Translations under genes and position numbers: made by a program
Assembly: GCA_040772045.1 (NCBI GenBank)
Contig: JAXGYV010000011.1
Location: 12,484 to 76,483, forward strand
Source: Thermoleophilia bacterium
GTDB taxonomy: Bacteria > Actinomycetota > Thermoleophilia > UBA2241
DNA length: 64,000 nucleotides
Reading direction: 5' to 3'
Shown here: positions 869-44,569 of the stretch, piece after piece
How the letters are laid out: every line of letters begins with the position of its first letter
Position numbering within the stretch: the stretch's first letter is position 1
Notes under the pieces: model-generated
Told to the model about the DNA's origin: nothing
Seen by the model: only the letters and a program-made list of their open reading frames with translations
Database searches by the model: none

Positions 869-1687
869 TCAAGCAACTCCTGTGTAACAGCAGCCGAACT
901 CCCGCATTGTGTACGGAGCCGGACGCGTAGATGAGCCGGCGGCAGCCATCACGAAGGCGGCGCGGAGCACGGGCCGGCCAGTGGCCTGCCACACGGCGAG
1001 CGCGTAGCCTCCAGCCTGCAGTTCGTACCGGCGACGGACACGCGCCTCATCTGGAACGCTATCGGTCTTGTAATCTACCACCACCCAACCGTCCGGTGCT
1101 TCGTAGAGGTCGCAGAAACCCTGGAGCACCAGGGGCTCGCTCGCCGGGCCGTCGTCGATCCGCGCGCAGAGCGGCACCTCGCGGAACATGCGCGGCGAGG
1201 CAGCGGCATGGCGGACCGGCGCGCTGAGCCAGCAGCCCTGCGCCATGCCCACGAGCCGCTCCACCCATGCGCGCGCCTGTACTCCCTCACCGCGCGAGGT
1301 CCTCGGCGGCCGCCACGGCCAGCGCCTCCATCTGCTCGGCGATCTCCGCCGGCACACGGACAGCATCCGGCACTCCAAGCGATACGATCTCCATGATGCG
1401 ATGCACCGTCGCGCCGGCAGCGAGCGTCGCGCGCCGCGCCGCGGCCAGCGAGGCGCGCTCGTGGCCGCTCGGCGCCTCGGCCTCGCCGAGGTCGAGGTCC
1501 TCCATGGAGAACCGGCGAGACCGCCGCCCGCGGACGAGCGGCCGCGCTCGCGACTTCCTTTAGCCGCCGGCCCCAGGCTTCGCGCAGCGCAGGCGCGCCG
1601 TTCCTCGCCCGGCTCTCCCGACTCGGCGCGCGGCGCGGCCTCTCCCGCCGGCAGGATCACGGCGCCATCCTGCATGCCGACGGTCAC
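869..1687 (-). pseudogene. C-terminal RecB-type nuclease region of the AddA-like gene, spread over several frames
   Basis: Frame C (1189 down to 869) carries the PD-(D/E)XK nuclease motifs VVVDYKTD and QxxxY. Frame B (1287..1505) and frame B again (1767..2000, helicase motif VI EASERRRLLYVAATR) also read as real protein. At least four frame switches fall between 2000 and 1200. Confidence 0.6.
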
Positions 1688-4371
1688 GCCCCCGGGTCCG
1701 GCAGCCAGCTCCGCAGCGGCTCGAGCAGCGAGCCGCTGCCGTTCCTCGGCCAGCCCGGAAGCATGATCACCAGCAGATCCATGGCCGCGTCGCCGCCACG
1801 TAGAGCAGCCGGCGCCGCTCGCTGGCCTCCATGGCCTTCTCGGCCTCCGCGGCCGTCGGCGTACGCCGAGCTCGCGGCCGGCAGCTTGCCCGCCGCCCGC
1901 TCATCTGGCGAAGCGGCTCGCGCGAGGCTGAAGGAGAGTTCACAGCGCCCGCGACGCCGGTCGAACAGCACGCGCGTCTCGTCTCGGCCACCGCCGGCAC
2001 GCGACCAGGCGTCGGCGATCACCACGATGGGGAACTCGAGCCCCTTGGCGCCGTGCACGGTGAGCACGCGGACCTCGTCCCCCCCGTCGTCCACGGTCGA
2101 CTCGATCTCCGCGGCGGCCGTCCCCTGCTCCTGCGCCCACTTCACGAACGTCGACAAGGTGACCCCCTCCTCGGTCGAGAACGCGCGTGCCACCTGCCGC
2201 AACTTGCGGAGGTTGGCCAGCGCCTGGCCGGCGCGGTCCCCCCACGCCGCCGCCGCCTCGAAGGCCCACGTCCGCCGCAGCAGATCGTCCAGGATCACGT
2301 CGATCGGACGGCCGTGCGCGCTCTCGTGCACGGCGCGCAGGGTGGCGAGAGCCGCGCAGATCTCCGCGTCGGCACCCGACGGCTGTTCCGCGAAGTAGTC
2401 GAACCGCCCTCCGGCGACGTGGAACAGGTAGAGACGCTGGTCCGCGAAGCCGAACAGCGTGGAGTGCAGCGCCCCGTACACGGCCAGCGGATCGGCACTA
2501 TCGGCCACGGCCCTGAGGCCCAAGAGGGTGTCGCGTACCTCACGCCGGCGGTAGAACATCTTGCCCGCCTCGATTCGGTACGGGATGCCCGCTTCGCGCA
2601 GCGCCTGTTCCAGCGCGCTGAGATCGATGGCCGCCCGGATGAGCACGGCCACATCGCCCCATCGCGCCGGCCGCCACTGCTCGCCGCTACCCTGCGGCGC
2701 ATCGGACTCGCGCTCACGGACGGACCACCCCTGCTCCCGGATGCCCTGAATCAGCAGCCGCGCCAGAGCCTCGGCTTCGGCGCGGCGCAGCTCCTCCGCC
2801 CGCGGTTCGACGGAAGGGCCGCAGACCACGGCCACGCGAGGCGCCGCATCTCCCGGCGCGGCGGCGAGGCTTTCCGGCTCCGGCCGAAACGCCGCCAGCG
2901 GCACGTACTCCGGCTGGCGGCGCGGTGCCGCGTCCTCGCCAATGACCGTCTCGAACACCTGGTTCACCCACGTAACAACGGACGGTACGGTACGGAAGTT
3001 CTGGCTGATCGAGAGGAGCTCGCCGCCGTTGCGCAGGATGAGGTCTTTCACGTCGTCGTACATGCCGATGTCGGCGCGGCGAAAGCGGTAGATGGATTGC
3101 TTGGGGTCGCCGACCACGAAGAGCTTGCCCGGTTTGAGGGCTACCTCGCGCCAGTCCGCCGCGCGCGCGCCGTCTTCCGCCAGCAGCAAGACGATCTCGG
3201 CCTGCAGCGGATCGGTGTCCTGGAACTCATCGATGAGGATGTAGTCGAACGCCTGCTGCCAGCGTTCCCGCAGACCTCGATGGGCCCGCACGGCATCGCG
3301 CAGCCGGCCGAGGAGATCGGCGAAGTCCAGATAGCCACGCTGGAGCTGCGCGCGAGCCGCCCACTCTCCGAAGGTACGCGCTGTACGTAGGATGTCTTCG
3401 GCCAGCGCGGCACCGTACTCCTCGAGGATGCTTTCCCTCAGCGCCCGCACGGCGGCACAGCGCTCCTGGAAAGCATCCTTCCCCTCTTTGCCACCCCAGT
3501 TCTTGGCCACTCCGGCCTTCGGAGAGACCACGGGCAGGGATGCCACGGCGGCCACCAGCCGATGGATACTGCCCTGCCGCGCCCCGCGCACCCTGTCGGC
3601 CTGCGCGCCACAGTCGAGCGCCGCCAGAAAGCCCTTGTCCTCGTGATCGCCGCACATCGCACAGGCGAATGCCGTCTGCTCTTCCAACGCCAGCACGAGC
3701 TCATCGGCGGAGGCGAGGAGGCTTTGCCGCGCTCCGGCTAGGCCACTCGCCCCTCCCGGGGGATCGCCAGCTCGCAAGTCGAACCGGTCGCTGAACAGGC
3801 GCCGGGCCGCGGCGTACAGGACGCCGACGGCCATTCCCGCCTCCAGCAGCGTACTCACAGCCTCCCGGCTGGTGGCCAGCGCCCCATCTCCTGCTGCCGC
3901 GTGCCCCTCCGCCTCAGGTTGGAGCACCAGCGCCAGCCACTCGTCCCACAGCCGGTCGAACAGCAATCGTCCGCCGAGTGCGTCGAGCTGCTTGAACGCG
4001 GGGTCCACGCCCGCCTCCAGAGGCGACTCCCGCAGGAGGCGCGCCGCGAAGGCGTGGATAGTCGAGATAGGCGCTTGATCGATGTCGCGGAGCGCCTCGC
4101 GCAGAACACACCAGCGCTCCGACCGCGGCTCTGAGCGCTCGACCAGCGAGCGGAGCCTGGCTCGCACGCGCAGGCGGAGCTCGCCGGCCGCCTTATCCGT
4201 GAAGGTGATGGCTACCACGCGGCGCACGGACCCGCAGGCCAGAAGACACGATACGAACCGCTCCACCAGGAGCCTCGTCTTGCCCGTACCGGCCCCGGCT
4301 TCCACCAGGAAGGTGGTCTGCAGATCGCTCAGCGCGCGCGTGCGAGCGGCCTGGTCGCAGGGCTCACGCAT
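1684..4371 (-). CDS. addA: AddA/UvrD-family helicase-nuclease, helicase portion (intact frame)
   Basis: N-terminal Walker A (TFLVEAGAGTGKTRLL), UvrD motifs (VVAITFTDKAAGELR, DEFQDTD, VGDPKQSIYRFR, LTVHGAKGLEFPIV). Overlaps the AddB-like gene end by 8 nt. The frame degenerates near the 3' end. Confidence 0.8.
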   Translation of the reverse strand: MREPCDQAARTRALSDLQTTFLVEAGAGTGKTRLLVERFVSCLLACGSVRRVVAITFTDKAAGELRLRVRARLRSLVERSEPRSERWCVLREALRDIDQAPISTIHAFAARLLRESPLEAGVDPAFKQLDALGGRLLFDRLWDEWLALVLQPEAEGHAAAGDGALATSREAVSTLLEAGMAVGVLYAAARRLFSDRFDLRAGDPPGGASGLAGARQSLLASADELVLALEEQTAFACAMCGDHEDKGFLAALDCGAQADRVRGARQGSIHRLVAAVASLPVVSPKAGVAKNWGGKEGKDAFQERCAAVRALRESILEEYGAALAEDILRTARTFGEWAARAQLQRGYLDFADLLGRLRDAVRAHRGLRERWQQAFDYILIDEFQDTDPLQAEIVLLLAEDGARAADWREVALKPGKLFVVGDPKQSIYRFRRADIGMYDDVKDLILRNGGELLSISQNFRTVPSVVTWVNQVFETVIGEDAAPRRQPEYVPLAAFRPEPESLAAAPGDAAPRVAVVCGPSVEPRAEELRRAEAEALARLLIQGIREQGWSVRERESDAPQGSGEQWRPARWGDVAVLIRAAIDLSALEQALREAGIPYRIEAGKMFYRRREVRDTLLGLRAVADSADPLAVYGALHSTLFGFADQRLYLFHVAGGRFDYFAEQPSGADAEICAALATLRAVHESAHGRPIDVILDDLLRRTWAFEAAAAWGDRAGQALANLRKLRQVARAFSTEEGVTLSTFVKWAQEQGTAAAEIESTVDDGGDEVRVLTVHGAKGLEFPIVVIADAWSRAGGGRDETRVLFDRRRGRCELSFSLARAASPDERAAGKLPAASSAYADGRGGREGHGGQRAAPAALRGGDAAMDLLVIMLPGWPRNGSGSLLEPLRSWLPDPGA

Positions 4372-6421
4372 CCGTGGCCCCCTCTGCTTGCCTCGCCGTT
4401 GACGACGACTCCGCCGCGGACGCAGACCATGGCCGCCGCAGCGCCGCCAGGCGGCCGAACGCCGGGTGGGCGCGCTTGCGCCTCTGCGTGAGCTTCAGCT
4501 CGTCGCAGGCATACGCCACAGGGCACCAGTCGCACGACCGCTCGTTCCAGGCGAGCCGTGGAAACACGCCCGCCTCCACAAGGCGCAGGATGCCGTCTAC
4601 CGTGTCGGCGAGCTGCTCGAGCACCATGGCCTCATCTGCCGGCAGCACGACCTCCGCGAGCTCCCGCCGCCGCGTGACCATGCGGAAGGCGCACGAGACG
4701 TCGGCGGCCTGCCGCCCTTCCGCCCGCGCACGCACCGCCAACCGGTAGACGGGGAGCTGTACGTTGCGCCCCGCCTCCACCTGCTCCTGCTCGCCTCTCC
4801 CCCTCCCCGTCTTGTAGTCGAGCACGCGCAGCCGGCGACCGTCGGCGCCGCGGTCCACCCGATCGATGCGGCCGCGGAACGACACCGTGCGGCCATCCGG
4901 AAGCTCCAGCGAAACCGCGGGGGCCTGCTCGCCGAACACGCTCTCCAGCAGCCACGGCTGCGGCCCTTCCGGCTCCGCCCACACGGGATCCTGCGCGACC
5001 GCGAGCGAGAGATCCTCGGCCATCCGCGCTTGTTCGATGCGCCACACCAGCGGCATACCCAGAGCGCCGCGCTCTTCCGCCACGCGACACTCCTCGGCGA
5101 CCAGAGCCGGTACCATGCTCACCGCCTCCTCTCGCCCAGCTCCGTCGCGCACCCGCGAGAACACCCGCTGGAGCACGCGATGGACGATCCTCCCCACCTC
5201 GCGTCGATCGGTCTCCACCAGCGGGTCGGCGGGCTCGAGCGGCTCGATCATCAGCACGTAGAGCACGTAGTACGCGAACGGGCACTCCAGATACTGCTGG
5301 AGCGCCGTGGGCGCCTGTGGGGTTGCCGGCCGCGCCGTGGCCGCGAGCTTCTGGCGAGCACGGTGGGAGTAGAACACGCCGTCCCACGACAGCGCTCCGG
5401 CGAACACGCCGCTCAACCGTCGGCCGAGGAGCCGCCGCGCGGTGGGCGCGCCGCACACGCGCTCCAGATACCGCCGCGGAGCCGTAGCCGCGCCGCGGCG
5501 GCGCGCGCTCTGCGAGAGCGCCAGCAGCAGGGCCACATCTAGGTCGCGCAGGTCGGCGGACGCGCCGACGACGTCGACCGCGCCGCCCGCGAGCGGCTGA
5601 GGGCCCGAGGCCGCCCGCCGCAAACCCGCGGCGGCGGGCGGCGGGCAGACGAAGTCCTCGGCCGCGACGGTTCGGCCGGTAAGCTCCTCTGCGAGCTCGA
5701 CCGCCGCGCGCGCGGGCTGGCGCTCCGCGCCGGCGGCGTCCCGACGAGGCACGTAGCCGACGAAGGAGCGCAGGGCAGCCTGGCGAGCCAGCGCGAACAG
5801 CGTATCCGCCTCGGACTCTCCTCCGCCCGGCTCCGCTAGATGCACCGCGAAGAGGCGCGCCAGGCGCTCCCTCTCCCGATCACAGAGGAGAGGATCGCCG
5901 CCGCGCGAGGGAGGAAAGCCACCGGAGCACAGCCCGGTGAAGTGCACCTCGGCGAAGCGCAGCCCGCGGAGCTCGTGTGGCGTCAGCACGGCCACGCCGT
6001 GCCGCGCGACCGCGCCGCAAGGCTCGCGCACTCCGCGGAGTCGCTCCCCGATTACGCGAGCGGCCTCCGCCACCGAGACAGCCTCCTCGACCGTCGCGCA
6101 GCGACGCAGCTCCGTGATCGCGAGCACGGCGGGATCGTCGGGCGACGCCGCGCACACTTCGTGAGCGAGGCGGACGAAGGCGGCGGCCATCTGATCCCAC
6201 GGCGCCACGGCGGGAAGGCCAGCCACCGCCTGCTGCACCCGGCCCACGAAGACACTGAGCCCGTCCACGGCCGCCCGCTGGCGCCGCAGCCGCCGCCAGT
6301 CATCGCCAGCCACTACCCCGGCCTGACGTGACTCCTCTGCCCACCTGGCGACCTCGTCGCCGCGAAGCACCCCGCCGCGGCCATGCCTTGCGCGTACGCG
6401 AGGAGCGCCGCTCGCTGCCAC
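4364..6421 (-). CDS. addB: AddB-like helicase-nuclease subunit, C-terminal part (PD-(D/E)XK nuclease with Cys cluster)
   Basis: C-terminal CDWCPVAYAC (CxxCx5C iron-staple motif of AddB/RexB-type nucleases). Overlaps the upstream ORF in another frame. Confidence 0.7.
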   Translation of the reverse strand: MAASGAPRVRARHGRGGVLRGDEVARWAEESRQAGVVAGDDWRRLRRQRAAVDGLSVFVGRVQQAVAGLPAVAPWDQMAAAFVRLAHEVCAASPDDPAVLAITELRRCATVEEAVSVAEAARVIGERLRGVREPCGAVARHGVAVLTPHELRGLRFAEVHFTGLCSGGFPPSRGGDPLLCDRERERLARLFAVHLAEPGGGESEADTLFALARQAALRSFVGYVPRRDAAGAERQPARAAVELAEELTGRTVAAEDFVCPPPAAAGLRRAASGPQPLAGGAVDVVGASADLRDLDVALLLALSQSARRRGAATAPRRYLERVCGAPTARRLLGRRLSGVFAGALSWDGVFYSHRARQKLAATARPATPQAPTALQQYLECPFAYYVLYVLMIEPLEPADPLVETDRREVGRIVHRVLQRVFSRVRDGAGREEAVSMVPALVAEECRVAEERGALGMPLVWRIEQARMAEDLSLAVAQDPVWAEPEGPQPWLLESVFGEQAPAVSLELPDGRTVSFRGRIDRVDRGADGRRLRVLDYKTGRGRGEQEQVEAGRNVQLPVYRLAVRARAEGRQAADVSCAFRMVTRRRELAEVVLPADEAMVLEQLADTVDGILRLVEAGVFPRLAWNERSCDWCPVAYACDELKLTQRRKRAHPAFGRLAALRRPWSASAAESSSTARQAEGATDA

Positions 6422-7485
6422 GCCTCCCCGGCGGCGGGAAAGGCCGCCTCCAGCAGGCTCCCCAGCGACACGCAGCCACCGCTCGACGGGGGCAGCCGGC
6501 GTGCCACGGGAAACCCCAGCGTCCGGAGGCCGCGCGCGAGGTGGTCCGCGCGCTGCTCGCTCGGCGCCACCACGGCGATCTCGTGAAAGCGCCGGCCCTC
6601 GCCAGCCGACCGGCGCAGCGCGCGCGCCACCTCGATCAGCTCGTCTTCGTCGTCGCCCACAGACACGAGCTCCGCCGCCGCCAACGCCGTCGCCGGCAGA
6701 GCATTCGCCCGCAGGCCGAGCTCAGCGAAGAAGCGCCACCCCGAGGCCGTGTAGCCCTGCCCGTCCTGCGGGGAAGGCAGGAAGACCGTCGTCTCACACA
6801 CGCCGGCCAGGACGGCCAGCAGCTCGCGCTGGCATTCCGGCAGATCGTACAGGCCGTAAACGAACGCTACGGCGGGGAGTGCGAGAACGTCGCCATCGTT
6901 CTCCACGAGGGTGCCGCGCTCGGAGATGCTCCCGTGGGGTGTACGCGCGCGCAGCGCCCGCGCTGCGCGCGCGTACACCCCCGCGCGATCGGCCGCATCG
7001 GCCTCGTGCAGCGCCGCCTCGTAAGCGATGAGAGCGCGGCGCACATCGGCCACCCGTTCGCCACAGCCGTCCCACGGCCTGTCGGCCGGCACTCGCGCCT
7101 CACGAAGGTCCTCGATGCTGCGCAGAAACGCGGGCACCAGACCCGGCATACCTCGCAGCGACCCGAACGAGCTCTCCGGCGACGCGGTCACACTGGCGAC
7201 AACCCGCTCGCCGAGACGCAGGCGAGCCTCGTCTGTGAGCACGTGATCGGCACGCAGCCCGCTGCGCTGTGCGAGGTCGAGAGCAAACCGATAGATGGTA
7301 ATCGCGCGCACGTTCGCGTGGCCACCGAGCCGCTCGGCGAGCAACCAGGAGAGGTACGTGGCCAGCGCGGCGGAACCGACGATCAGAGTGACCGGAGCGA
7401 GCGCATCCCGCTCGCGGACTGCCTGGACCTCCGCGGTGAGCGCGGCCTCCAGTGTTCCCAGATCACCGGTGTAGAGATACCCCAT
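6313..7485 (-). CDS. addB: AddB-like subunit, N-terminal part (degenerate ATP-binding region); frame-shifted relative to 4364..6421
   Basis: The 390-aa ORF ends inside the start of the 685-aa ORF in a different frame. Together they are ~1040 aa, the size of AddB/RexB. No P-loop is recognisable. Confidence 0.55.
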   Translation of the reverse strand: MGYLYTGDLGTLEAALTAEVQAVRERDALAPVTLIVGSAALATYLSWLLAERLGGHANVRAITIYRFALDLAQRSGLRADHVLTDEARLRLGERVVASVTASPESSFGSLRGMPGLVPAFLRSIEDLREARVPADRPWDGCGERVADVRRALIAYEAALHEADAADRAGVYARAARALRARTPHGSISERGTLVENDGDVLALPAVAFVYGLYDLPECQRELLAVLAGVCETTVFLPSPQDGQGYTASGWRFFAELGLRANALPATALAAAELVSVGDDEDELIEVARALRRSAGEGRRFHEIAVVAPSEQRADHLARGLRTLGFPVARRLPPSSGGCVSLGSLLEAAFPAAGEAWQRAALLAYAQGMAAAGCFAATRSPGGQRSHVRPG

Positions 7486-7943: not shown

Positions 7944-8050
7944 GCAGGCTCCTTCCAGTTACCAAAGAGGTGTTCCGAAGGATATGCGCAGCCATCGCGA
8001 CCTTCAACCATAGAGCTTCGACAGGCCGAGCCCTCACCGCGCATACGCCG

Positions 8051-8587
8051 CTACGGTGCGGTGAGGGCCGCGATCAGCTCCCCCTCGTCGGGGCAGCTCT
8101 TCAGAAGCTCCGTGCGCCCCGCGACCCGGAAGTCGGCGAACTCGAAACCCGGCGTCACCAAGCAGGAGACGAGCGCCCACGAGCATCCCCCGGGTCTCAC
8201 ACGAGCTGCCTGCCATACCCCCGCCGGCACACACGCTTGTGGCACGGCTTGCTCGCCACCGGCACCGCTCTGGACCCTATCGAGGAGGAGGCGGCGCGCT
8301 CCGGTACCGCCGGACAGCAACAGCAGCTCGAGCGGCGCGCCGCCGTGGTGCAGCCACAGCTCATCCGACAGCAGCCGGTGAAACAGGCTTGGTCGCTCCA
8401 CCGTCACCAGGAATAAGATGGCCGTGGCCGAGGAGCGTGTGCCCCTGGACGTACACACGTGCGACGCGGCGCGGTACGTCTCGCGATAGTACCCGCCCTC
8501 GGGATGAGGCAGTAACTCGAATCGATCGATCAGGTCGCGAACCTCGCGGTCGTTGGTGCTCTGCGTGGTGCCCGATGCGTTGCGCAT
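8051..8587 (-). CDS. cupin (DUF985/Cupin_5-like) protein
   Basis: LLPHPEGGYYRETYR motif characteristic of the DUF985 cupin family. Confidence 0.6.
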   Translation of the reverse strand: MRNASGTTQSTNDREVRDLIDRFELLPHPEGGYYRETYRAASHVCTSRGTRSSATAILFLVTVERPSLFHRLLSDELWLHHGGAPLELLLLSGGTGARRLLLDRVQSGAGGEQAVPQACVPAGVWQAARVRPGGCSWALVSCLVTPGFEFADFRVAGRTELLKSCPDEGELIAALTAP

Positions 8588-8663
8588 GCGAGTAGCTTAC
8601 CCCGCCCGGCACTCCATCGCGTCGCTCGCGACGACGCCGGGTGCATCGCGCCGCGGGAGAACA

Positions 8664-8705
8664 ATGGGGGAGGCCCCCCGCGACTCTTCCCGAGTCGCGG
8701 GCCTC

Positions 8706-8708
<3 letters not shown>
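8664..8708 (-). terminator. GC-rich hairpin immediately 3' of rnpB
   Basis: Minus strand reads GGGGAGGCCCGCGACUC-GGGAAGA-GUCGCGGGGGGCCUCCCC followed by CAUUGUUCUC. Confidence 0.5.
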
Positions 8709-9120
<412 letters not shown>

Positions 9121-9475
9121 GTACCACCTTTGCCCGCGAAGAAAACACGCTGAGCAGGCCAAAAGTTCACCGACGCAGCACGAGGCAACGACCAGGGGCC
9201 AGCGCGCGAAGCCGCTGGGAGACGCGAAGGTGCCGCCTATCCGCTGGCTTATCCGGCGATCACCGAATGCGACGGTTGGTGATCTAGCCAGGGTCGGCGG
9301 CTACTGACGCTATGCTATCCTATGAGCCGAGGCTACGGGGCCTCTGTTGTTTTATGCGGTCATACTTCCGCTGCACAATCGTTCGCAGGGGCACCCACAG
9401 CCACTGCTGTGCGTGAGTACGGGGCTCATGAGCGCCACAGCACCCCGTCAGCCGTACGCCAGAAGGAGAGGGACC

Positions 9476-10162
9476 ATGGTCATGAGGCTGCTCGGCTTGA
9501 GCTTTAGCCCTCGCAAGAACAGCAACAGCTCCGCGCTCTTGCGCACCTCCTTTGACCGCCTCCTTGCAACCTACCCTGGCGAAGTGGAATGCGAGACGAT
9601 AGACGTGCGTGAGCTGCACGTTGAGCCCTGCGACGACTGCGACGTATGCGGCAAGAGTAAGGGAGACGGTCGCCACATCCCGTGCATAAGGGCCGAGGAC
9701 GACGATGTGCAGGGAGTCCTCGACAAGATGGTCGCTGCTCACGGCTTCATCGTCGCTACTCCAGTTTACTTCGGTTTGCCCTCAGATCTCTTCTCGAAGT
9801 TCATCATGCGCACCCGGGTGCTCCGCCACCAGGACTTTCGCCTCGCCAACCGCGTAGCTGGCGTTATGGCCATCGCCGCGCGTCGCTCGGGCGGCGCCGA
9901 AACAACCATTCTCTCCACGTGGCTGCCGCTGATACGCAACGGGTGCTTGGTCGTCGGCAACGGCGATCAAACATGCCAGTACGGTGCCATGGGTTGGGCT
10001 AGCGCTCGAAACCACATCCTGACCGACGAGTGGGGCCTCGAACAGGGGTTTCAGGTCGCGCAGCGGGTGTTCACAGTCGCCAAGCTCGTGCAGACCGGCA
10101 TACAAACACTGCATTTCCACAGCCCCATGACGTTCGACTACACATCAGGGACCCGGCCCTAA
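9476..10162 (+). CDS. NADPH-dependent FMN reductase / iron-sulfur flavoprotein (Isf)-like protein
   Basis: LLGLSFSPRK flavodoxin-like FMN-reductase signature. Compact Cys motif CDDCDVCGK...C. AGGAGAG RBS 7 nt upstream of ATG 9476. Confidence 0.7.
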   Translation: MVMRLLGLSFSPRKNSNSSALLRTSFDRLLATYPGEVECETIDVRELHVEPCDDCDVCGKSKGDGRHIPCIRAEDDDVQGVLDKMVAAHGFIVATPVYFGLPSDLFSKFIMRTRVLRHQDFRLANRVAGVMAIAARRSGGAETTILSTWLPLIRNGCLVVGNGDQTCQYGAMGWASARNHILTDEWGLEQGFQVAQRVFTVAKLVQTGIQTLHFHSPMTFDYTSGTRP

Positions 10163-10224
10163 CGCGGACCTCCAACGCAAGAGAGTGGAGGCGTCAAGCG
10201 GGCAATCCAGGAGGACAGAGCACC

Positions 10225-10470
10225 ATGTCGGATGCCGCCATCATCACCGAGTACATCTGCGATGAGCTTCTCAACGGCGAACGCGTCGAGGCAGACACGT
10301 CGCTGTTTCGCACCAAGCTCCTGGATTCCCTCAGCCTCACGAGCTTGATCCTCTTCCTCGAACAACGGTTCGCGGTACGCATTGGCCCCATGGACATCTC
10401 GTACGAGAACCTCGACAGCGTCAGTCTCATCGTGGCCTTCCTGGAGAGGAAGAGGAATGCAACCCCGTGA
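10225..10470 (+). CDS. acyl/peptidyl carrier protein (DltC-like)
   Basis: 81 aa; LDSLSLTSLILFLEQRF with the DSLS phosphopantetheine-attachment serine. GGAGGA RBS. Confidence 0.75.
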   Translation: MSDAAIITEYICDELLNGERVEADTSLFRTKLLDSLSLTSLILFLEQRFAVRIGPMDISYENLDSVSLIVAFLERKRNATP

Positions 10471-10634
10471 CAGGTGGATAAGCCTCACCCCGGCGCGCGC
10501 CGGGAAGAGCCGCCGCCAACATCCGACGCCGTGGTACGTGGCCGGCTTGACTGTTCAGTGCCTCCTTTGGACCCTCGTGTTCATGGCGTTGGTGCTCGTC
10601 GCCCTCGGCGGCCTAGGTCTCACGGAGTTCCGCT

Positions 10635-12146
10635 ATGTGGGGTTCTAGCGGAGCCCAAGATCATCCACAGCGGTCGCTCGATCCCCTGCTGAGCCTGTTC
10701 GTGAACACCGCCCACCACCGCCCGACGGTCGAGTTGCTTGTCACTGCGGAGCGCGCCTACAGCTATGGCGATTTCCTCGCACACACGAGCGGCATCGTCA
10801 CGCTGCTACGGGAGCACGGAGTGCAGGCGGGGCACCGAGTAGCGCTGTACGCGGACGCATACGACTCCTTCTTCATCGCCATGCTGGGAGTATGGCTGGC
10901 GGGAGGCGTCGCTGTCCCCATCAACACCGCTCTCCCGGCCGTCTCTTCCCGCTCGCTGATCGAGCGTTCGCAGCCACGCCTGCTCCTCCATGACCCGTAC
11001 ATCGCACCGCCGGTAACCGACACGCCGGCCGCCGTCATCACAACCGCGGCCCCCCGAACGTCGCCACCTGAGTTCACTCCAGTGAGTGGCGGCGACGTGG
11101 CCATGATTCTCTTCACCTCCGGCACCACTGGCATGCCGAAGGGAGTCTGCCAGCGTTTGTCCGCCATCACTGGGAACGCTCGCCGTGTGGCGGCCGCACT
11201 GAAGTTGCGTACAGACGACCGCCTGTTCATCAACACGCCCGCCTACTACACCAGCGGCATCTGCCACTTCCTCACCATGATGGCCGCCGGAGCCAGCACC
11301 GTAGGCGAGACGGGGTTCTTCTTCGGCGAGGCCCTACTGGACCGGTTACTCGCCCAAAGGTGCACGGGTTTTGGCGGTGCACCGGCACACCTGATCCGCG
11401 TGGTCGACCCCCTGCTCACACCCGTGCGCACCCCAGGCCTGCGGTTCTGGGTGAGCTCCGGCGACCACCTGCCGATGAACACGCTCGCCAAAACACATAC
11501 TCATCTGCCCGACGTCGCCCTGTTCAACATGTACGGGCTCACCGAGGTCTCCGGACGACTCTGTGTACTCTCGCCAGAGCAGAGTGACCGTCGGCCTGGC
11601 TCGGTTGGCCGGCCACTGCCGGATATGCGGGTCGTGGCCCGTAACAGCACAGGAGAGGCCCTGCATCCGGGGCAGGTAGGAGAGCTCTACGTACAGGGGC
11701 CGCTCGTGATGACCGAGTACTTGGACGACGCGGCGGCTACCGCCGCCGCCCTTGGCCCACACGGCTTTCGCACAGGAGACTACGGCCACGTGGACGCCGA
11801 CGGCTTCGTCTGGGTCGAGGGTCGCAAAGACGATGTGTTCAAACGCGGTGGAGAGAAGGTCTCTACCGTCCAGATCCAGCAGGCCATGGGGACTCTCGAC
11901 GATATCCTCGACTGCGCTGTGCTGGCCATCGAGGATCCGTTCCTCGGCCACACCCCGATCGCTTTCATCGTCCCGCGCGAGGGCTACGCGCCACGCAGCG
12001 GCAAGCTCCTCCGTGCGCTCCGCGAACACCTGCCCGCCTCCTCCTTGCCCAGCCGCATTATTCCGGTGATATCAATCCCTCGTACCGGCTCGGGAAAGGT
12101 GATCAGGCAAGAGCTCTTGGCGCTCCTCGAGGGTCCCCGCGATTGA
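10635..12146 (+). CDS. AMP-dependent adenylate-forming enzyme (DltA-like carrier-protein ligase; substrate unknown)
   Basis: LFTSGTTGMPKGV (A3/P-loop), YGLTEV, GDYGHVDADGFVWVEGRKDDVFKRGGEKV (A8). 503 aa. Confidence 0.8.
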   Translation: MWGSSGAQDHPQRSLDPLLSLFVNTAHHRPTVELLVTAERAYSYGDFLAHTSGIVTLLREHGVQAGHRVALYADAYDSFFIAMLGVWLAGGVAVPINTALPAVSSRSLIERSQPRLLLHDPYIAPPVTDTPAAVITTAAPRTSPPEFTPVSGGDVAMILFTSGTTGMPKGVCQRLSAITGNARRVAAALKLRTDDRLFINTPAYYTSGICHFLTMMAAGASTVGETGFFFGEALLDRLLAQRCTGFGGAPAHLIRVVDPLLTPVRTPGLRFWVSSGDHLPMNTLAKTHTHLPDVALFNMYGLTEVSGRLCVLSPEQSDRRPGSVGRPLPDMRVVARNSTGEALHPGQVGELYVQGPLVMTEYLDDAAATAAALGPHGFRTGDYGHVDADGFVWVEGRKDDVFKRGGEKVSTVQIQQAMGTLDDILDCAVLAIEDPFLGHTPIAFIVPREGYAPRSGKLLRALREHLPASSLPSRIIPVISIPRTGSGKVIRQELLALLEGPRD

Positions 12147-12203
12147 GCCAATCTGACTGGAACGGTCGGCTTCTCACCGCAACGGGCTGACGCTGACGCG
12201 CTC

Positions 12204-13442
12204 ATGAGCATCTACTTCTCCATCTATCTTCTGCCCGCGGCCGCGTTCTCCGTGCCCTTCTACTGGCTCGTCCTCAAAAAGGACCAACATCGCCTGCTCT
12301 TCCTGCTCCTCGGCTCCGTGGGCGTCCTGATGACGATTCACCCTGTCTTCGCTATGGTGGCCCCAGGGGTCGTCGCCGGGTCATGGGCTCTGGTCAACTG
12401 CATGGACAAGCGGCGCCTTACGATCGATACCGCACTCGTGATCGCCATTTCGGCGGCCATCCTCATCCTGGCCATCGGAAAGTACGGCCGCGACATCGCC
12501 GCCGCCATTTGGTCGCCCGACGACTGGGTGCTCAGCCGACTGATCATGCCCCTCGGGCTGAGCTACTTCGCATTCCGCCTCTTGCAGTACGTGTTCGACC
12601 ACGCACGGGGAACGCTGAGAGACCGCTCGCTGGTACGCCTCGGCGCATTCATGTTCTTCCTGCCCATCTTCCCGGCCGGGCCGCTCGAGACGTACCAGGG
12701 TTTCTACGAGAAACGCTCCTCGCACTTCGACAAGCAGCTCCTCTACGGCGGCCTGCGGCGAATCGTGCTGGGCTATTTCAAGAAGACGGTGATCGTCGAC
12801 TTCCTCATCGCCATCTTGTTCTCCGACCTCTTGCGAGACGTTCACGCCGCCGATCTTGGCGAAGCTCTCGTTCATCCCGCGTGGGGCCCCGCCTTCGTAG
12901 TCGTCGCCTTCCTGCGCGCCTACGCGGATCTGTCCGCGTACACCGATCTCGCCATCGGTTTCTCGAGCCTCTTCGGCTTCCGCATCATGGAGAACTTTGA
13001 CCGCCCGCTCTGGAGGCCCAATCTGGCGGAGTTCTGGCGCTGCTGGCATATTTCGCTCAGCAGCTGGTGCCGCAACAACGTGTACTTCCCCATCTTCGGC
13101 CTCACGCGCAAACCGTGGCTCGGTCTCTACGCGACCATGCTGGTCATGGGTCTGTGGCACTACGTAAACCTCAATTGGACAGCATGGGGCCTCTACCACG
13201 GCACCGGCCTCGTGGTGGTCTCGTGGTGGATGAAGCAGAAGCGGAAACGGACTAGAGCCTGGAGGGCAACGGGACGACCGCTGTGGGCTCGCCTCCTGAG
13301 ACCATCGGGCTATGTCGTCACCTTCCTCTTCGTCGCCCTGGGCTACTCCTTCGTGGCCACCCAAAGGTTCCCGGAGGCGCTTCGGGTTTTCGTATGGGCC
13401 GTCGTCGGCCCCTTCATCTGGCTCGGACAGCGGATGTTCTAA
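12204..13442 (+). CDS. membrane-bound O-acyltransferase (MBOAT; DltB/AlgI family)
   Basis: Multi-TM protein with FWRCWHISLSSWCRNNVYFPIF (MBOAT catalytic His motif). Confidence 0.8.
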   Translation: MSIYFSIYLLPAAAFSVPFYWLVLKKDQHRLLFLLLGSVGVLMTIHPVFAMVAPGVVAGSWALVNCMDKRRLTIDTALVIAISAAILILAIGKYGRDIAAAIWSPDDWVLSRLIMPLGLSYFAFRLLQYVFDHARGTLRDRSLVRLGAFMFFLPIFPAGPLETYQGFYEKRSSHFDKQLLYGGLRRIVLGYFKKTVIVDFLIAILFSDLLRDVHAADLGEALVHPAWGPAFVVVAFLRAYADLSAYTDLAIGFSSLFGFRIMENFDRPLWRPNLAEFWRCWHISLSSWCRNNVYFPIFGLTRKPWLGLYATMLVMGLWHYVNLNWTAWGLYHGTGLVVVSWWMKQKRKRTRAWRATGRPLWARLLRPSGYVVTFLFVALGYSFVATQRFPEALRVFVWAVVGPFIWLGQRMF

Positions 13443-14593
13443 TGCCGAAGACCGTGGAGGACACCATAATATCGCAGCCGGCGTCGCCCCCATCGGCAGG
13501 TGGCATGGCGCTCGGCAGACGCGCCCAGTTTCTGCGCGGCCTGCGCTGCACGAACCCTCTGGTGCTCCTGGCAGCCGCCGCACTGGCCGCAGTCCTGCTG
13601 TTCGTCGTTCAAGGACTCGTCGTGCGTGGTACATACCGCGCGATCGATGAACGGCACTTGCTGCGCTCGCCGAAAGACGACTACACGCACATCGCGTACC
13701 TCATCGCACAGCTGCGTGCGCACCCTCCGCAGCGCCTCCCCGTGTACTACATCGGCGGCTCGGCCACACGAGAGTCCATCCGCAGTGGCGAGACATTGGC
13801 AGACGCACTGTCGGCGACCACCGGTATTCCTACTGAAGTGCACATCATGGGCTCCAAACAGCAGACGCTGGCTGAAACACTGGCGATCGTCGACAACCTG
13901 CCTCCGGGTCCCGCTGTGGTGACCGTAGGCCTCAACCGCTACCGTTTCCGCATCTCGCCGCAGCTGTCCGCGCGGCAGCTCCAGGGTATCGAGTTCCTGC
14001 TCGCAAGCCCCAGCTTACGATCCTTCGCCGCGCGTACCGACGGGATTGGCCCACGGGATCGCACCCTCATCCCGGGTATTGCCAACTACATGTCAACTTG
14101 GTTGCGCTACCGGCACAAGAGCCTCCTCCGCCTTCGCCTGAGGAAGATCGACTACCAGTTCCACCTATTTGACCGTACCAATCAGCTCTCCGACGCACGC
14201 AAGGCCCAGAACGTGGCCACAGTGCGAAAGGCCGCGCTCAACCGAGCACCGCAGCCAGACGCCGTGATGCGCTACAACCTGGATCTCCTCCGGGCGATTG
14301 CCGAAACCGCCCGCGCCCGCGGCTTCCAGGTTGTCTTTTTCGAGGTGCCGCGGAACAAAGAGATGCTCGGCGATACGTGGTCGATCGACAGTGAGACCTA
14401 CGCGCCTTTTGTGGCCGCCACCGCCCGTCAGTGCCACACTACCTATCTTGACCTGAACCTCGAAGTAAACATCCCGAACGAGCACTTCGCCGACCTCTCG
14501 CACCTTCTGGATCCCGGGCGCCTGACATGGGAACGTCACCTCGCTCCCGCCCTCGCACCGTTCGTCACAGCGGCGCGGAACTCTGACCCGTAA
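13442..14593 (+). CDS. DltD-like membrane-anchored SGNH-fold protein
   Basis: ATG overlaps the MBOAT stop (TAATG). N-terminal signal-anchor LVLLAAAALAAVLLFVVQGLVV. YYIGGSATRE candidate Ser nucleophile and C-terminal FADLSHL (DxxH). Confidence 0.6.
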   Translation: MPKTVEDTIISQPASPPSAGGMALGRRAQFLRGLRCTNPLVLLAAAALAAVLLFVVQGLVVRGTYRAIDERHLLRSPKDDYTHIAYLIAQLRAHPPQRLPVYYIGGSATRESIRSGETLADALSATTGIPTEVHIMGSKQQTLAETLAIVDNLPPGPAVVTVGLNRYRFRISPQLSARQLQGIEFLLASPSLRSFAARTDGIGPRDRTLIPGIANYMSTWLRYRHKSLLRLRLRKIDYQFHLFDRTNQLSDARKAQNVATVRKAALNRAPQPDAVMRYNLDLLRAIAETARARGFQVVFFEVPRNKEMLGDTWSIDSETYAPFVAATARQCHTTYLDLNLEVNIPNEHFADLSHLLDPGRLTWERHLAPALAPFVTAARNSDP

Positions 14594-42949: not shown

Positions 42950-44569
42950 TTACCTCTTCGCTGAACCAGCCACAGCGGTCATAACGACATTCCGGTCGAA
43001 AATACCCGGCCCGGATGTGTCCTTTGGCAGACGGTGCTTTTGAATCGCCCCAGTACCCACGCCACGCACGAACGTCTGGGCGGGCACCACTTGAACGAAG
43101 CGCGGCAAGGCGAACCTGGGCACATTCGCTTCACAGTAGGCGAAGAAAACTTCGGGATCAAAATCTGCACCTTCATGCAGTTCCAGCAACACTTTGATCT
43201 CGTCTTCGCCGCCGAACTCGTCGCGCACACCGATCGCCGCGCACTCCTGTACGCCTGGAGCAAGTCGAAGAGCGGACTCGAGCTCCCAGGCGGAGACGTT
43301 TTCCCCGCGCCTGCGCAGGTTGTCCGTCAGTCGGCCGCCGAAGAACACGAAACCATCCTCATCCATGATCCCCGCGTCGCCGGTGTGGTACCACAGCCCG
43401 CGGAATGCCTCTACAGTCGCCTCCGGACGACGCCAATACCCCACCGTCATCATATTCGGGAACTGCGGACGGTGAACGATCTCTCCCGGTGTACCTCGCG
43501 GGACCTCGAAGCCGTCCTCGTCGACGATCTTCACTTCAAAGCCGCCGCACGGCCAGCCGGCGCTCCCGCGACGATGATGAGCCGGTGTCCCGTAGAGGAC
43601 ACCGTTGGACTCGGTCATCCCAAACATCTCGAGCATCTCGATGCCCAGGTCGTCCTCGTAGAACTCGTACATCTCCTGGGGAATCGGCGCGCCGAAAATA
43701 CGCCGCATCCTGAGACGCTCCAGATTGGACGGCCGCCCTGCCGTAGCTAGCACGGCCTGCATGGCGCCGATTAGCAGCGTCCACGTACCGCCGAGAGCCT
43801 CGACCTCCGGCCAGAACCGACGCACACTAAACCGAGGAGTGAAAGCGAAGACGGCACCCGACTGAAGCGTAGCTGGCACCGCCAGGTGAGCATCCACGTG
43901 GAAGAACGGCGATACCCAGTAAGCAGTATCAGCTTCGGTTAACTCAATGATACGAGAGAATATGTGGCCAAGATTCGAGTAGTAGCCATGGGGGATCATC
44001 ACGCCTTTGGATGGTCCCGTCGTACCAGACGTATACATGATGGTCGCGAGGTCGTGGGGGCGAAGATCACACGGGGTGAACGCCTCTCCAGGGCGAGATA
44101 CGGCGTACTTGCCGGCCTCGTCCTCAAGATCGATGAGAGGAACCGCGGGCCCGCCACAAGCCTCCAGCGTAGGTAGGAACTCAGCCTGCGCCAGGACGAG
44201 ATTGGGTTCGCTATCTTGCACGATGTGCGCGAGAAACGGTCCCTTGAGCTCCGCATTGATGCAGACCTCAACGCCGCCCACAAGGTAAATGCCATACTGC
44301 CACGCCAGGAACCACTGCGAGTTGCGACTCATGATCGCCACGCGGTCTCCAGGCTCTATGCCGTATCCCTTCAGCGCGGTAGCGCACCAACGAGCCCGAT
44401 CGGCGAAGTCCGCCACCGTCCACTCTCCGCCAGCCCAGCGGAGAAAGGGTGCCCCCGGGCGAACGGCCTCTGCTTCCAACAAGTCAGCGACCGGCCCTCG
44501 CCGCTCGGGCACGGCACCGTGTACGAGCTCGCCGATCATCGCGCAACCCTCCCCGGCGCCCCGCAGCAC
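42950..44569 (-). CDS. AMP-dependent acyl-CoA synthetase/ligase
   Basis: IMYTSGTTGPSKGV, YGLTE-like, GEIVHRPQFP..GYW, TGD motifs. Confidence 0.8.
   Translation of the reverse strand: MLRGAGEGCAMIGELVHGAVPERRGPVADLLEAEAVRPGAPFLRWAGGEWTVADFADRARWCATALKGYGIEPGDRVAIMSRNSQWFLAWQYGIYLVGGVEVCINAELKGPFLAHIVQDSEPNLVLAQAEFLPTLEACGGPAVPLIDLEDEAGKYAVSRPGEAFTPCDLRPHDLATIMYTSGTTGPSKGVMIPHGYYSNLGHIFSRIIELTEADTAYWVSPFFHVDAHLAVPATLQSGAVFAFTPRFSVRRFWPEVEALGGTWTLLIGAMQAVLATAGRPSNLERLRMRRIFGAPIPQEMYEFYEDDLGIEMLEMFGMTESNGVLYGTPAHHRRGSAGWPCGGFEVKIVDEDGFEVPRGTPGEIVHRPQFPNMMTVGYWRRPEATVEAFRGLWYHTGDAGIMDEDGFVFFGGRLTDNLRRRGENVSAWELESALRLAPGVQECAAIGVRDEFGGEDEIKVLLELHEGADFDPEVFFAYCEANVPRFALPRFVQVVPAQTFVRGVGTGAIQKHRLPKDTSGPGIFDRNVVMTAVAGSAKR

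Follow-up and report, generated by a model that had tools for sequence, protein, structure and literature searches.

A conserved Dlt-like cassette of uncultured Thermoleophilia encodes a DltX-like microprotein and an Fe-S-type flavoprotein

Introduction

In the Dlt system, the tyrosine of an FXYXXF motif serves as an 'acyl shuttle' that takes D-alanine (D-Ala) from the carrier protein DltC via the MBOAT protein DltB and hands it to the serine of DltD (PMC12148441); in PatA, as in Dlt, this tyrosine accepts the acyl group (PMC12148441). Here we describe a six-gene cassette that copies this Gram-positive Dlt logic in uncultured Thermoleophilia, studied in a 64,000-nucleotide stretch of DNA from a Thermoleophilia bacterium (GenBank assembly GCA_040772045.1, contig JAXGYV010000011.1, positions 12,484 to 76,483, forward strand; hereafter the window). 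The cassette is real and strongly conserved, and it includes two components that bear on how the Dlt comparison is to be read: a microprotein resembling DltX and a flavoprotein.

Dlt alone is said to combine a carrier protein, a DltX-type microprotein and an MBOAT-SGNH pair, and DltX to occur almost nowhere outside Firmicutes (PMC12148441; PMC5541007). In the other MBOAT-SGNH pathways the FxYxxF motif is fused to the MBOAT protein, and neither a microprotein nor a carrier protein takes part (PMC12148441). [quoted passage not shown] Our search of the literature found no described acyl carrier protein (ACP)-dependent MBOAT cassette other than Dlt, and no dlt-like system with a flavoprotein. Outside Firmicutes, a DltA-like ligase and a DltC-like carrier modify an envelope molecule in the AlmEFG system of Vibrio cholerae, with glycine as the substrate; AlmG is an LpxL-type acyltransferase of the cytoplasmic face rather than an MBOAT/SGNH pair, and AlmEFG has neither a microprotein nor a flavoprotein.

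As in bacterial MBOAT-SGNH acyl-tyrosine relays generally, an MBOAT protein, a predicted extracytoplasmic SGNH protein and an FxYxxF motif are encoded together in the cassette. The nearest comparison is DltXABCD of Firmicutes, with which it shares the same five roles and, by analogy, may share the same relay. The two differ in gene order, which is X-A-B-C-D in Firmicutes and flavoprotein-C-X-A-(D)-B-D in the cassette, and in host, the cassette belonging to Thermoleophilia (Actinomycetota). Unlike DltXABCD, the cassette has an obligatory Fe-S-type flavoprotein, between one and five SGNH paralogues, a microprotein and SGNH proteins with no detectable sequence homology to DltX and DltD, and a ligase that lacks the aspartate expected to bind an amino group and is no nearer to DltA than to other enzymes of the ANL superfamily.

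Results

The positions of the cassette genes were checked by listing open reading frames (ORFs) and inspecting start codons, which returned for five co-directional genes the same coordinates as an earlier note made from the letters of the window. The motifs quoted in that note (DSLS, WHIS, GGSATRE and DLSHL) were all found, as was the coupling of the last gene, whose start overlaps the stop of the MBOAT gene within TAATG. The note had also described an operon of order C-A-B-D with no dltX, and here it was mistaken on both counts: a 63-residue microprotein with an FxYxxF C-terminus (hereafter X) is encoded at 10457-10648, with the carrier gene before it and the gene for the adenylating enzyme after it, and its ORF shares 14 nt with each of these neighbours. 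The presence of a DltX-like microprotein makes the Dlt analogy more complete than the note had it. The order in the window is flavoprotein, carrier protein, X, adenylating enzyme, MBOAT and SGNH, as follows:

9476-10162, + strand: Fe-S-type flavoprotein, 228 residues; Pfam FMN_red (1.4e-18), with a C52-x2-C55-x2-C58-x11-C70 insert
10225-10470, + strand: stand-alone carrier protein, 81 residues; Pfam PP-binding (1.3e-6), with the phosphopantetheine-site motif LLDSLSL
10457-10648, + strand: DltX-like microprotein X, 63 residues; one transmembrane helix and an FxYxxF-stop C-terminus
10635-12146, + strand: ANL-superfamily adenylating enzyme (ligase), 503 residues; Pfam AMP-binding and AMP-binding_C
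12204-13442, + strand: DltB-type MBOAT protein, 412 residues; Pfam MBOAT, with the catalytic histidine in WRCWHISLS
13442-14593, + strand: membrane-anchored SGNH protein, 383 residues; N-terminal transmembrane anchor and GGSATRE ... DLSHL

X (MQPRDRWISLTPARAGKSRRQHPTPWYVAGLTVQCLLWTLVFMALVLVALGGLGLTEFRYVGF, followed by the stop codon) begins with a basic N-terminus, continues in a single, strongly hydrophobic helix and closes with a tail of 13 residues that ends in LTEFRYVGF. Its FxYxxF-stop is the sole instance in the six frames of the window, for which residue and stop frequencies give an expectation of 0.009, and X is called as a gene by independent gene callers on related contigs. Nine divergent loci differ freely in the N-terminus but keep the helix and the C-terminus (L-T-E/Q-F-R-Y-V-G/R-F); in one metagenome locus (L086) a variant confirmed by hand ends in TEFHYVGY. 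Pairwise comparison of the last nine codons across eight loci yielded 106 synonymous and 7 non-synonymous codon differences, and the C-terminus of X is under strong purifying selection. A profile search with X recovered 251 clusters, all of them labelled hypothetical and lacking any Pfam domain, and a homologue from a bin labelled Krumholzibacteria also lies within the cassette.

The layout of X is that of the DltX of Bacillus thuringiensis, with a basic N-terminus, a single transmembrane helix and a tail of 13-15 residues that carries FxYxxF at its extreme C-terminus; in the Bacillus protein these parts comprise 11 basic residues, a 22-residue helix and a 15-residue tail ending in STFIYNEF (PMC5541007). 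At the level of sequence, X had no match to the Pfam family of DltX (DUF3687) at E up to 0.1, and alignment to B. thuringiensis DltX by hhalign detected no homology (probability 0.4%).

The MBOAT protein is of the DltB type. Its single NCBIfam match is the DltB model TIGR04091 (143 bits, against a cut-off of 375) and its PDB matches are solely DltB (6bug and 8jem, 1e-28), so that DltB is its only curated or solved relative. The alignment to DltB is nearly full-length, spanning residues 113-381 of 412, and has WHxSLS in register. The C-terminus (WLGQRMF-stop) has neither the extra helices nor the fused FxYxxF motif, and the motif would be supplied in trans by the separate X ORF. One locus (L018) offers an internal contrast: immediately upstream of a complete cassette lies an AlgI/PatA-type MBOAT gene (1679-3376, + strand) whose product ends in SPFLYFQF, placing a fused-motif MBOAT and a separate-microprotein MBOAT side by side.

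The last protein of the cassette, put forward earlier as the DltD counterpart, is DltD-like in architecture, with an N-terminal membrane anchor followed by an SGNH fold with a Ser-Asp-His triad, and structural comparison by Foldseek gave DltD as its best matches. The correspondence does not extend to sequence: the protein has no Pfam or NCBIfam match, and a profile of 34 sequences compared with solved chains retrieved no DltD at E up to 10. The serine, aspartate and histidine are invariant, and Ser107, Asp351 and His354 are the putative catalytic residues. A word-indexed search had returned three matches and suggested that the family is extremely rare; an exhaustive HMMER search overturned this, with 878 representatives.

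The number of SGNH paralogues per cassette ranges from one to five. Five occur in the single cassette of L011 (4187-10924, + strand) and one to three at other loci, and L008 carries a lone paralogue with no further cassette gene within 10 kb. Ahead of the anchor helix, the N-terminus of the SGNH protein (window 13442-13560) contains an F-x-R-G-L-R-x-x-x-P motif that is invariant in the closer paralogues; it is presumably cytoplasmic and could be a docking site for the MBOAT protein. Some family members (P0043 and P0149) are fused to large extra domains. By eye, the C-terminal region of P0043 is beta-helix-like or carbohydrate-binding in appearance, and another member has N-terminal RCC1-like repeats; such domains hint at binding of extracellular polymers.

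Conservation of the neighbourhood was assessed in a metagenome scan with an MBOAT alignment, which gave 80 loci, 21 of them evaluable in having at least 5.2 kb upstream of the MBOAT gene. All six components are kept in 21/21 evaluable loci (the ligase of L031 and X of L086 were confirmed by hand), as they are in eight loci from metagenome-assembled genomes (MAGs) and metagenome assemblies (L007 and L009-L015), and the chromosomal flanks of the cassette differ from locus to locus. Gene order is less constant. By tblastn, L007, L009 and L011 read flavoprotein-carrier-X-ligase-SGNH-MBOAT-SGNH; L010 is rearranged to X, SGNH, flavoprotein, carrier, ligase and MBOAT, and L079 is rearranged too. Median identity to the proteins of the window is highest for the flavoprotein (67.8%), followed by MBOAT (55.1%), the carrier protein (53.9%), X (52.2%), the ligase (51.9%) and the SGNH protein (35.1%).

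A scan of a genome collection with a 10-sequence SGNH alignment found just 5 loci. Nearly all of the named relatives are MAGs of Thermoleophilia or Actinomycetes, and the window has a GC content of 60-73%, in agreement with the description of the genome in the earlier note as high-GC and apparently actinobacterial. The public names of cassette proteins are 'hypothetical' or 'flavodoxin family protein'. One locus (L001) departs from the full set: it keeps the carrier protein, X, MBOAT and two SGNH genes, the second SGNH paralogue lying 5 kb off, and its ligase is cut to a 36-residue C-terminal remnant (3763-3873, - strand; IPRTGSGK...). No flavoprotein gene was found beside this cassette or elsewhere on the 13.7 kb retrieved. 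The L001 cassette is either decaying or served in trans.

The adenylating enzyme had been called DltA-like, which holds at the level of the superfamily and fails below it. Against the PDB it scored 176 bits with adenylation (A) domains of nonribosomal peptide synthetases (NRPS), 142 bits with acyl-CoA synthetases and 91 bits with DltA (7r27). There was no DltA model among its best 25 NCBIfam matches, in which it resembles fatty-acyl-CoA ligases, and it falls under the cut-off of every curated family among them. Its substrate pocket was read from HMMER alignments to LgrA and to 8xjz, together with a MAFFT alignment that includes a PheA reference; for 8xjz, the best PDB match of the ligase, we found no describing paper in the literature. 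In A domains, Asp235 (PheA numbering), the aspartate of FDxS, binds the alpha-amino group of the substrate. In the ligase this position is a threonine (YYTSGIC), invariant in 8 orthologues, and the other predicted pocket positions are identical in the same orthologues at an overall identity of about 50-60%. Because the amino-group aspartate is replaced and the pocket is otherwise unvarying, the predicted pocket suggests a single, conserved substrate other than an alpha-amino acid. Naming the substrate from the pocket was tried and set aside, as the residues exclude the amino-acid type and give no specific acid. Judged by sequence, the enzyme is not a DltA orthologue, and presumably it loads the carrier protein. 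Another ANL adenylating enzyme in the window (42950-44569, - strand), 27% identical to the cassette ligase, adjoins a Liv-type ABC transporter and looks like ordinary metabolism.

The carrier protein follows the DltC-type plan, being a small, stand-alone PP-binding protein with a conserved serine. Its best NCBIfam match is an ornithine-lipid ACP, below threshold, with DltC second-best, and the DltC and other ACP models all remain under their cut-offs; the two DltC equivalogs gave 27 bits (NF003464, cut-off 68) and 20 bits (TIGR01688, cut-off 52).

The flavoprotein shares the FMN_red domain, the flavodoxin-like fold and the motif start CX2CX2C with ISF, WrbA, PnpB and FLR. The Isf-type label given to it in the earlier note is apt for this fold and inexact for the cysteines, since the fourth follows at x11 and not at the 5-7 of the published ISF motif (CX2CX2CX5-7C), which ligates a [4Fe-4S] cluster (PMC3164229). 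The top PDB sequence match is the flavone ene-reductase FLR (7d38), which has equal cysteine spacing and its motif in the same loop (PMC7862272) and whose substrate-binding C-terminal tail is lacking in the cassette protein. An AlphaFold2 model (predicted local distance difference test score 78) matches PnpB, WrbA, RosB and FLR, consistent with a WrbA/FMN-reductase fold. C52, C55, C58 and C70 are invariant across 35 homologues.

The flavoprotein belongs to a tight subfamily of about 300 clusters at 64-79% identity, and 7/7 members whose context was examined lie in the cassette, among them three homologues at 65-72% identity with differing chromosomal flanks. A plasmid search returned just distant homologues of at most 35% identity. 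The flavoprotein gene adjoins the carrier gene in all evaluable loci, rearranged ones included. This exclusive coupling, the adjacency to the carrier gene, the highest conservation of any component and the loss of both flavoprotein and ligase in L001 argue for a role of the flavoprotein at the stage of the substrate or the carrier.

Immediately upstream, the cassette is preceded by an RNase P RNA of class A (8706-9114, - strand; Rfam RF00010, 252.8 bits), and the ORFs listed over it are spurious. By comparison with a near-identical annotated contig (L003), an AddAB-like helicase-nuclease gene and a Cupin_5 gene would lie upstream, and a pentose-phosphate cluster (pgl, zwf, gnd, pgi, tal and tkt; 14595 to about 24000, - strand) downstream. 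Over positions 8000-14000, the GC content of the cassette is 63-65% compared with about 70% in both flanks, which could reflect membrane-protein composition or past transfer. A further region of lower GC, at 34-52 kb, encodes PcsB, NlpC/P60 hydrolases and the primary sigma factor. A promoter scan gave no sigma-70-type match.

Several genes accompany the cassette at other loci. In L086, a 446-residue protein with a CxxxCxxC motif of the radical-SAM kind is encoded between the carrier and X genes (5436-6776, + strand), with an AT-richer codon content; an enzyme of that kind would require a low-potential electron donor, for example a flavodoxin-like protein. An esterase gene of the PF00756 family, the antigen-85/esterase D family, follows the last SGNH gene in L015 (11568-12533, + strand), for which the PF00756 match is recorded, and in 11 other loci, most of which share synteny and are therefore not independent observations; a representative of this type in L047 has, by eye, a Tat-like N-terminus. 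In one lineage, genes for an LPG_synthase_TM protein, a PMT-family glycosyltransferase and a DedA-type protein (VTT domain) lie near the cassette. Recurrent flanking genes were considered as a clue to the acceptor and rejected, being confounded by spurious high-GC ORFs and by shared synteny in one lineage.

Discussion

The core of the earlier reading, in which a dlt-like carrier-protein/MBOAT system for acylation is joined by an Isf-type flavoprotein in an actinobacterial genome, was upheld by every test run. It also withstood the conditions that the note had set for its own refutation: the neighbourhood is kept in relatives, the ligase stays under the cut-offs of its best 25 NCBIfam families, and the MBOAT protein has only DltB as a curated or solved relative. 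We propose that the cassette is a Dlt-type relay that uses a carrier protein to pass an acyl group across the membrane, that this acyl group is not an amino acid, and that a redox step is included, a reading to which we assign a probability of roughly 0.65. In such a relay, the ANL enzyme would adenylate a carboxylic acid without an alpha-amino group and load it as a thioester onto the 81-residue carrier protein, and the flavoprotein would perform or aid a redox step, either on the acid or on the acyl group once it is bound to the carrier. The DltB-type MBOAT protein would then take over the acyl group on the cytoplasmic side, where it is held as the carrier thioester, and move it to the tyrosine of the FRYVGF end of X at the outer face, and X would transfer it to the active-site serine of the membrane-anchored SGNH protein or proteins. 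These would finally esterify an extracytoplasmic acceptor, most likely a glycopolymer of the Thermoleophilia cell envelope. Because the number of SGNH paralogues varies from one to five, there is a suggestion of several acceptors or positions.

The proposal starts from what is observed, namely the gene set, the motifs and fold assignments, genes that strictly co-occur, an X under purifying selection and the missing amino-acid-binding aspartate, and from these we infer the chemical steps, the topology, the identities of acyl group and acceptor, and the role of the flavoprotein. Since the activating enzyme is not built for D-alanine and the flavoprotein is always present, the cassette probably attaches an acyl group other than D-alanine to the cell envelope.

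Several observations weigh against this proposal. As membership in the DltA, DltC, DltD and DltX families fails by sequence, the relay is read from architecture, motif and fold. In the ligase pocket, positions 330 and 331 are ambiguous, and the pocket was read from alignment to an NRPS reference together with one HMMER alignment. The cassette contains no phosphopantetheinyl transferase gene, and the flanking genes point to no acceptor. Finally, the flavoprotein motif is CX2CX2CX11C and that of ISF is CX2CX2CX5-7C (PMC3164229), and an Fe-S cluster is predicted from four invariant cysteines.

A more specific version of the proposal, which we advance tentatively and would not yet favor, is that the cassette is a second, independent carrier-protein-dependent MBOAT/microprotein/SGNH pathway in which the Fe-S flavoprotein redox-tailors a non-amino-acid acyl group on the carrier, or just before it is loaded, and the product is esterified onto one or more envelope polymers. 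Ene- or quinone-type reduction is one possibility for such tailoring. The flavoprotein could instead leave the acyl group untouched and serve as a redox sensor or a quinone reductase, gating or protecting the pathway, for example according to respiratory or oxidative state, as might be expected from its nearest folds, the quinone reductases WrbA and PnpB with their general stress roles, and from the missing FLR-like substrate-binding extension. A purely regulatory role of this kind sits poorly with a coupling to the cassette that is strict and exclusive, with an adjacency to the carrier gene that is invariant even in rearranged loci, with the rank of the flavoprotein as the most conserved component, and with its disappearance together with the ligase in L001, and we consider it unlikely, if a serious candidate.

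The acceptor of a Dlt-type relay might also be something other than an envelope glycopolymer: a lipid, small molecule or protein, such as a lipoglycan anchor, a secreted metabolite or a surface protein. The likeness of the ligase to fatty-acyl-CoA ligases in NCBIfam, the sub-threshold best match of the carrier protein to an ornithine-lipid ACP, the lack of consistently linked glycosyltransferase or polymer-synthesis genes, and the LPG_synthase_TM, PMT-family and DedA-type genes near the cassette in one lineage would all suit such an acceptor. Nonetheless, the characterised bacterial MBOAT-SGNH pairs all acylate envelope polymers (PMC12148441), and some SGNH members, P0043 among them, carry C-terminal domains that by eye appear carbohydrate-binding or beta-helix-like, which makes this alternative somewhat less probable again.

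That the cassette is an orthologous Dlt system, D-alanylating a teichoic-acid-like polymer in an actinobacterium with the flavoprotein as an accessory, seems very improbable to us. All five functional roles are there, X included, DltB is the best and sole curated match of the MBOAT protein, and DltC is the second-best NCBIfam match of the carrier protein. Against orthology, the aspartate that would bind the alpha-amino group is an invariant threonine, DltA is a weak PDB match (91 bits, compared with 176 and 142 for other ANL groups) and is missing from the 25 best family matches of the ligase, scores for the DltB and DltC equivalogs are far under their cut-offs, DltD and DltX are undetectable by sequence, and the cassette has no linked gene related to D-alanine, such as a racemase. 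The idea that unrelated genes came together by chance, with X one of the many long spurious ORFs that high-GC DNA produces, can be dismissed, as it is refuted by co-occurrence in 21/21 loci across different flanks, by a motif expected 0.009 times per window, and by 106 synonymous versus 7 non-synonymous codon differences in X.

We therefore return to the Dlt-type relay with a non-amino-acid acyl group, and rate the cassette as a second carrier-protein/microprotein/MBOAT/SGNH pathway that occurs outside Firmicutes, has a ligase of a non-amino-acid type and includes an Fe-S-type flavoprotein as an integral part. It places a Dlt-type solution in another phylum, where four of the five Dlt-type parts escape family models, where the ligase is predicted to use a different class of substrate, and where a redox enzyme has been added. 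Three unannotated protein families are defined along with it: X, the DltD-like SGNH protein and the flavoprotein subfamily. The cassette offers a testable handle on the generality of the acyl-tyrosine shuttle, on the contribution of a flavoprotein to envelope acylation, and on the decoration of the almost unstudied envelopes of Thermoleophilia, a group that our searches encountered in many sediment, freshwater and wetland metagenomes. If tailoring by the flavoprotein is true, the cassette would produce a chemically new decoration of the cell envelope, and it would provide the first 'tailoring before export' step in a relay of this kind.

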